DNA from: Octopus vulgaris
Lineage: Eukaryota
Length of the DNA stretch: 64,000 bases
Direction of reading: 5' to 3'
Assembly (NCBI GenBank): GCA_951406725.2
Contig: OX597821.1
Coordinates: forward strand, 868,001-932,000
This document shows, in pieces, positions 35,166 to 35,965 of this stretch. The position numbers were made by a program, and so were the translations under genes. The notes below the pieces were generated by a model. That model saw only the letters and a list, made by a program, of their open reading frames with translations, had not been told where the DNA came from and searched no databases. Positions within the stretch are counted from its first letter, which is position 1, and every line of letters starts with the position of its first letter.

Positions 35166-35166
<1 letters not shown>

Positions 35167-35852
35167 GGTCGGAAATTGTTGGACACTCGTTCAGTGTCCA
35201 ACAATTTCCGACCTGTGGGCTTATGTCGAACAACTGCTGTCACGTGTGGGACGAGTCGGTTTATCAGCTGAGTCTATCGTCAATATTGTCACGCCTCCTT
35301 CCTTCAAACGGGAAGGAAGAGCTATTTTCATCATCCTTGTGGCTATGGCGAAAGAATGTATCTGGTGGACGCGTCTGAAAGGATTGGAGACAAACACTTT
35401 CCTCTCTGGTCAATCTCTCATCAACTTCTTCAAGTACCACTTGAAAAGGAAAGTGAGAGTAGAGAGGCAAGTTTTGTCTAGCGAATGTTTTAAAAAAAGA
35501 TGGGTGAATGTAGCAAGAATGGCACGTATGAATGACGAAGCCACCTTGAGCATAGTCCTATGAACCCAGAAATCGAAAACAGAGAGTTGCTTATTTGCAA
35601 AAAAAAAAAAAAAAAAAAAAAAGAAATATAAAATGTGACTTCATTGACCGAGGTTACCGTGGTCTTTTCCGTAGCCTTTTCTTTCCACGGGTAAACCTCA
35701 CCTGTCCTCCCCTTTACACTTCATATTGACATTTCTGTGATAACGATCCCTATTGATCAATTTTTTTTCCTCTCCCCCCTTTTTTAACCCCCCTTTTTTT
35801 TGTCCTCTTTCTCTCCTTTTACGATCCCTTTTGATCGAAACTCCCCCTTCAT

Positions 35853-35884
<32 letters not shown>

Positions 35885-35964
35885 TTTTTAAACCTTCAAA
35901 AGAAAAGCTCTACCTTGTAATTTGTTCTATCTGTGTGCAGCCCTGTGTGGCTAATAAAGAAACA

Positions 35965-35965
<1 letters not shown>
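35166..35965 (+). mobile_element. 5'-truncated Tx1/L1-like non-LTR retrotransposon (ORF2 C-terminus 35186-35563 plus 3' UTR) inside (CTAT)n
   Basis: Open frame [18 protein letters not shown]...ILVAMAKECIWWTR...FKKRW, like Tx1 sequence after the CCHC knuckle; AATAAA at the 3' end; absent from duplicate copy 2. Confidence 0.8.

Follow-up and report, generated by a model that had tools for sequence, protein, structure and literature searches.

A 5'-truncated L1/Tx1-type LINE inside a (TCTA)n array of Octopus vulgaris, likely a recent insertion present in one of two haplotypes

The closest described systems are Kibi and Koshi, families of the Tx1 clade in teleost fish (Kojima and Fujiwara 2004) that are reported to target (TC)n and (TTC)n (PMC4494074, PMC3812793), and the crocodilian Tx1-1_Crp group, in which Tx1 families prefer tetranucleotide microsatellites, namely (TTCC)n and (TTTC)n (PMC4494074). 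Microsatellite targets named in the available portions of this literature comprise (TC)n, (TTC)n, (TTCC)n, (TTTC)n, ACAY, AC, TAA and (TG)n (PMC4494074, PMC3812793, PMC4640811), and target preference of Tx1 families has been judged by whether a single repeat type accounts for more than 20% of flanks (PMC4494074). No (TATC)n target of a LINE was found in the openly accessible literature, to which the search was confined. Elements of the L1-Tx1 type are reported to have expanded in coleoids (PMC8967140), LINE insertion polymorphism has been described in octopus (PMC9115989), and 13 recently active L1-Tx1 families with 421 insertions have been recorded in Octopus vulgaris (PMC13282606, Table 1). 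Since polymorphic LINE insertions, microsatellite-associated L1/Tx1 elements and young octopus L1-Tx1 families are already known, the event described below is in itself ordinary; a possible new target motif and a link to a SINE are the leads that it provides. LINEs with sequence specificity also attract interest as gene-insertion tools.

The window under study, a stretch of 64,000 nucleotides of Octopus vulgaris DNA, holds two near-identical copies of one region, and in the first of them (copy 1) a segment of 798 bp (35167-35964) lies within (TCTA)n, the base A35166 being assignable to either array or insert. We interpret this segment as the 3' end of a 5'-truncated LINE of the L1/Tx1 type, placed in the array by a likely recent target-primed insertion in one haplotype, with copy 2 as the likely empty allele, and we give this interpretation a probability of roughly 0.6. 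Because the insert is found in only one of two near-identical copies that are likely alleles, the insertion is probably recent. The resemblance to Kibi and Koshi, which the original prediction had invoked, lies in the presence of an APE-type LINE of the L1 group within a microsatellite. Families of Tx1 that target microsatellites are indeed described; however, the repeats of Kibi and Koshi are (TC)n and (TTC)n in fish and not the (TCTA)n that flanks the insert in this mollusc (PMC4494074, PMC3812793), and these families therefore serve as analogues only.

When copy 1 (34504-41428) and copy 2 (41529-47479) are aligned globally, a single gap of about 800 bp appears at the position of the insert. 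The array 5' of the insert (34727-35166, plus strand) is a compound of (TCTA)n and (CCTA)n that ends in (TCTA)11, and the array on the 3' side (35965-36082, plus strand) represents the remainder of the target, a tail carried by the element, or both. The order of units in copy 1 is ...CCAA(CCTA)2(TCTA)11, the insert, and (TCTA)19(CCTA)2(TCTA)2(CCTA)1(TCTA)5, whereas copy 2 reads ...CCAA(CCTA)2(TCTA)17(CCTA)1(TCTA)2(CCTA)1(TCTA)16 with no insert, its empty (TCTA)17 site being located at about 42003-42070. Alignment and unit anatomy thus agree with the original prediction of some 800 bp within (CTAT)n of copy 1 (35166-35965 was correct within one base), and the unbroken array that it placed in copy 2 is found at the matching place as (TCTA)17. 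A target-site duplication would be invisible inside the array, where 11 and 19 units face 17 and where other runs differ by 1-11 units between copies; given these differences, the number of units offers no measure of a duplication, and this approach was discarded.

The surroundings of the array have features of their own. A tandem duplication of 116 bp of the compound-microsatellite unit (34872-34987) is confined to copy 1 and lies clear of the insert, of which it is regarded as independent. Just upstream of the array is a degraded Helitron Rep/helicase gene (32463-34640, plus strand; Helitron_like_N, PIF1 and Pif1_2B), within which copy 2 starts. A motif of 30 nt occurs at 30577-30606 and 34647-34676 (25 of 30 positions identical; 0 of 2000 shuffles), standing before a (CCTA)n array at 30609 and before the compound array at 34677 and so flanking the Helitron remnant. 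The array that the LINE entered may be Helitron-borne, which would be reminiscent of Tx1 families with DNA transposons as insertion sites.

The coding part of the insert is a C-terminal remnant of ORF2 (35184-35563, plus strand) that runs from the last zinc-knuckle Cys to the stop codon without stop or frameshift and is 76% identical over 124 aa to the relative P0158. It lies in an open frame of 131 aa, stop to stop (35168-35563). The stop-free remnant of 126 codons originally proposed was recovered when relatives were compared with the window by tblastn (126 columns at 35183-35560, no stop or frameshift), and the frame is intact as claimed; its codons up to 35183, however, are an inverted copy of 35197-35214 and not LINE coding sequence. 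The 3' UTR (35564-35964, plus strand) contains an A24 tract, pyrimidine tracts and an AATAAA signal at 35953-35958, and ends without a poly(A) tail. Within it, an A-rich stretch (35599-35633) and a T-rich stretch (35852-35889) are complementary over about 35 nt, and could pair in the RNA.

Although no Pfam family matched the 124-aa remnant as such, its relatives did carry domains of this class of element. A search with the remnant among 254 longer candidates gave seven matches, six of them with zf-RVT and/or RVT_1 and 68-76% identity, and an exhaustive homologue search returned 210 proteins at E <= 0.001. The seventh match was a gene model of Octopus bimaculoides (P0008, UniRef A0A0L8GCS6), in which the first 37 residues correspond to ORF2 of this LINE (36 of 37 identical) and are fused to unrelated sequence; the protein is probably a gene-model artefact. 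P0158, a protein of 1148 aa that clusters with the top match, is a complete ORF2 with Exo_endo_phos, RVT_1 and zf-RVT. Both P0158 and P0164 carry PF03372, PF00078 and PF13966 and display an N-terminal APE endonuclease, a reverse transcriptase (RT) and a C-terminal CCHC zinc knuckle, the features of the L1 group, of which the window retains only the part from the last Cys onward. When P0158 was compared with PDB entries, the best match was L1 ORF2p (E 1.5e-53), R2 proteins following at 2.7e-19 or weaker, in a set of 15 matches that comprised L1 and R2 only. Matches in the ESM Atlas were generic APE/RT/zf-RVT clusters without taxa. Two scans of a collection of bacterial and archaeal contigs for loci of the relatives gave 81 and 52 pattern matches, of which none was confirmed, in line with the make-up of that collection.

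The nearest named RT was that of Argonauta hians (69%), followed by proteins of lancelet, sea cucumber and limpet at 38-41%. A tree was built from 36 RT rows drawn from the homologue matches, none of which is a named Tx1 element; in it the family formed a 100/99 clade with Argonauta P0197 that was nested in a 100/100 clade of 15. This affinity makes an octopod host very likely. No named Tx1 protein was present among the homologues retrieved for the remnant or its relatives, and Tx1 is the label that we presume likely for this LINE. Judged by the domains and homologues of its ORF2 relatives, the insert is a 5'-truncated member of the L1 group (L1 + Tx1) of non-LTR retrotransposons, which supports in part the original identification of a Tx1-like LINE. 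Human L1 has the same ORF2 layout, is the best solved relative, and likewise carries AATAAA near its 3' end and shows 5' truncation with an inverted piece. However, it is far more distant in RT than the lancelet, sea cucumber and limpet proteins, its endonuclease has IDH where the relatives of the insert have LDR or IDR, and it ends in a poly(A) tail that the LINE of the insert lacks. Neither of the two copies of the LINE in the window has a mammalian-type poly(A) at its 3' junction, both reading AATAAAGAAAC-W-(TATC)n, and by these sequence features (lack of poly(A), LDR/IDR replacing IDH) the element is not an L1 of the mammalian type. The L1-Tx1 families recorded in Octopus vulgaris are of the same class and host group, and the family of the insert may well be one of these 13; the accessible part of that report gives no target preference or SINE partner for them (PMC13282606).

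The insert opens with a perfect inverted repeat of 22 bp (35166-35187 and 35193-35214; 100% identity, 5-nt loop, -26.4 kcal/mol), a feature absent from the original prediction, as are the second 3' stub and the tail shared with a SINE that are described below. The inverted arm (35166-35187, minus strand) is the exact reverse complement of 35193-35214 and would comprise some 17-18 nt of snap-back copy, with the last 4 nt as putative native microhomology. At the fold, relatives read HALVQC (7 of 10) or HAIVQC (1 of 10), the remaining two being unmatched by the pattern, and the window reads TLVQC. The Ala and Leu codons of the relatives predict that three of the four priming base pairs were native, and the base that follows is where the window deviates (Thr in place of Ala). 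In its simplest reading, the hairpin makes the 5' end a likely cDNA snap-back junction. The hairpin marks the insert as a product of retrotransposition, and the type of junction is itself not new, given that snap-back 5' junctions are reported for R2 (PMC11371274) and inverted duplications with small hairpins for L1 (bioRxiv 10.1101/2024.12.14.628481). In R2, the 3' end of the cDNA primes on itself before target joining, much as would have happened here; but R2 is an element with a restriction-like endonuclease that was assayed in cultured cells, whereas the insert belongs to an APE element and is a copy found naturally in a genome (PMC11371274).

The LINE family of the insert is represented by a second 3' stub (54451-54517, plus strand; 63 of 67 nt identical), which is preceded by (ACC)n and followed by (TATC)23-24 (54519-54614) in the same register as the array of the insert. 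Consequently, each of the two LINE 3' ends present in the window adjoins (TATC)n, and one of the two copies (n=2) is bordered by the repeat at its 5' end as well. In the 1 kb upstream of the second stub there is no run of (TATC)2 or more, and a target-site duplication is likewise absent from this stub. The window contains 10 arrays of (TATC)>=4, which together occupy 0.7% of strand positions and of which four are parts of the duplicated compound array; two of the 10 come after a LINE tail (scores 134 and 114), and the other eight score 13-16. A link between LINE tail and (TATC)n by chance is unlikely, and the family probably favours the TCTA/TATC repeat. The association with (CTAT)n that was originally suggested therefore stands for both 3' ends, which share one register, but does not extend to an upstream array in the second copy. 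With (TATC)23 behind this stub and no array in front of it, the repeat may serve not only as a target but also as a tail that the element brings along.

The terminal 41-50 nt of the LINE match the 3' ends of three SINE copies at 76-80% identity, the shared part covering the last ~45-50 nt of the element (35913-35962, plus strand). The three copies lie on the plus strand at 10895-11122 (15-16-bp target-site duplication), 22451-22658 (no target-site duplication found) and 62140-62372 (14-bp duplication). A fourth copy (57654-57875), with a target-site duplication of the 14-16-bp type, has a different tail. None of 300 shuffles reached the score of each of the three copies, and 161 of 300 reached that of the fourth, which is the chance level. 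The SINE family is about 230 nt long and has two different tails, one of them common to the LINE, and more fragments of it are found elsewhere in the window. Searches of the window with Rfam and ARAGORN returned nothing, and the SINE head is therefore called tRNA-like from the appearance of putative A and B boxes; its body may be Nin/Deu-like.

None of the three tail-sharing copies lies within 5 kb of a TATC array (distances are 5.3-6.2 kb), and they do not share the apparent target preference of the LINE. If the partner of the SINE were the family of the insert itself, the endonuclease would not be repeat-specific; the partner may instead be a sister LINE family without repeat preference. A conserved 3' stem-loop in the shared tail was considered and is unsupported, none of its 11 predicted pairs being changed on both sides among the only five sequences available. 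Pairs of SINEs and LINEs with a common 3' tail, comparable to the tRNA-like SINE and the LINE that share their last ~45 nt here, are described elsewhere (PMC3747384, PMC11481361, PMC4494074), and the crocodilian link between SINEU and Tx1-Mar is one that rests on shared targets and heads (PMC4494074). No octopus SINE with an L1/Tx1 tail was found in the accessible text of PMC5786205, PMC4758252, PMC4824008, PMC3747384 and PMC11481361. The common tail is a lead to the engine that drives this octopus SINE subfamily.

Copy 1 (filled, plus strand) ends flush with a scaffold gap of 100 N (41429-41528), and copy 2 (empty, plus strand) starts flush after it. Overlapping contig ends that lie flush with an N gap are the usual appearance of two haplotypes left in an assembly. 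The copies differ at 21 of 4899 unmasked non-repeat columns (0.43%, 95% interval 0.27-0.66%; 13 transitions and 8 transversions), and the differences fall on both sides of the insert site. Given the flush ends and this level of difference, the copies are likely two haplotypes of one octopus left as overlapping contig ends, and the locus points to a probable false duplication in the assembly. Published values of genome-wide diversity in two octopus species, 0.07% and 0.26%, are of the same order as the divergence of the copies and lower (PMC13669787). If the copies are allelic and the insert is derived, the insertion would be younger than the split of the haplotypes, at ~0.6 My with a rate of 0.0036 per My (quoted in PMC13282606) or 0.9 million generations with a rate of 2.4e-9 per generation (quoted in PMC13669787). 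Dating by the perfect hairpin or the intact ORF was set aside as too weak, these being compatible with up to 13-15% and 7-17% divergence, respectively. Within the copies, nine of the 21 substitutions cluster in 700 bp (38042-38741), and a MITE-like inverted repeat of 91 bp (37002-37092 and 37248-37338; 94.5% identical) has its counterpart in copy 2 at 43048-43384.

Two other histories of the locus compete with a recent insertion in one haplotype. The insert could be older and fixed, copy 2 having lost it by recombination between TCTA runs or by collapse in assembly or polishing. Direct repeats of 11 and 19 units do flank the insert, a 17-unit product fits such a deletion, and the internal clocks of the insert permit several percent of divergence. 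However, copy 2 has substitutions and an array structure of its own on both sides and is therefore not a collapsed copy of the first haplotype, and the ORF, the hairpin and the long homopolymers are all intact, which leaves this history quite improbable. The copies could also constitute a true tandem segmental duplication, one paralogue having been entered later by the LINE, in which case heterozygosity is not required. Against this, both copies stop to the base at the 100-N gap, as is typical of overlapping contig ends; we consider a tandem duplication quite unlikely, even though the divergence of 0.43% (0.27-0.66%) exceeds the mean diversity published for two species of octopus (PMC13669787) and an interval lying above those values would be compatible with a species or a locus of higher diversity, or with a true duplication.

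The two ends of the insert likewise allow other readings. The (TATC)n could be merely the 3' tail of the element, its endonuclease having no repeat preference and the family making arrays instead of seeking them. Simple-repeat tails occur in many LINEs, both LINE 3' ends are in one register, (ACC)n and not TATC lies upstream of the stub at 54451, and SINEs with a related tail are found at unrelated sites with duplications of 14-16 bp. Yet the long copy sits inside an array that, according to the empty copy, already existed, and random insertion would face TATC arrays at only 0.7% of strand positions, so that we regard a tail without any target preference as unlikely. At the 5' end, twin priming comes into consideration, a process that inverts upstream sequence and is the common source of 5' inversions in L1. 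It is also named in bioRxiv 10.1101/2024.12.14.628481; nevertheless, the inverted arm entirely duplicates sequence that is also there in sense, and native microhomology is predicted at the fold of the hairpin. An origin of the hairpin through twin priming or later repair in place of cDNA snap-back is thus most improbable.

We favour a mechanism, inferred from two copies (n=2), in which the element RNA ends in UAUC units and pairs through them with nicked (TAGA)n, which would produce both a preference for arrays and their occasional seeding. The AATAAA signal ends 6 nt before the array and neither LINE copy has poly(A), so that transcripts would probably terminate in the repeat that follows. 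In line with the general biology of LINEs, the element RNA would be cut ~10-30 nt beyond AATAAA, inside the downstream array of the donor, and would end in a few UAUC units; the strand that reads (TAGA)n would then be nicked by the endonuclease and paired with the RNA tail, biasing insertion to TATC arrays and adding repeat units. Reverse transcription would have halted after ~780 nt, the 3' end of the cDNA folding back on a microhomology of 4 bp with a 5-nt loop and copying 17-18 nt of itself, and the folded end would have joined the upstream array through 1 bp of microhomology. In the assembly, finally, the two haplotypes would have remained as contig ends that overlap and are bridged by a gap of 100 N.

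A broader proposal, which we advance tentatively and consider rather unlikely in its entirety, is that one active octopus family of the Tx1 type both targets and seeds (TATC)n by means of a read-through RNA tail, and that the same family, or a closely related sister, also drives the mobility of an abundant octopus SINE in one of its tail variants, which itself escapes targeting. The escape would follow from the absence of a UAUC tail in the SINE RNA. If this were true, (TATC)n would join the target motifs of LINEs as a new one, octopus tetranucleotide microsatellites would have a source in this family, and site choice guided by the RNA tail could be separated from that guided by the endonuclease in one natural system.

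Elsewhere in the window, a degenerate (TA)n array of 1.7 kb occupies positions 180-1910, and the segments 59563-59826 and 60480-60740 exhibit inverted similarity over ~264 bp (78%), consisting mostly of simple repeats.
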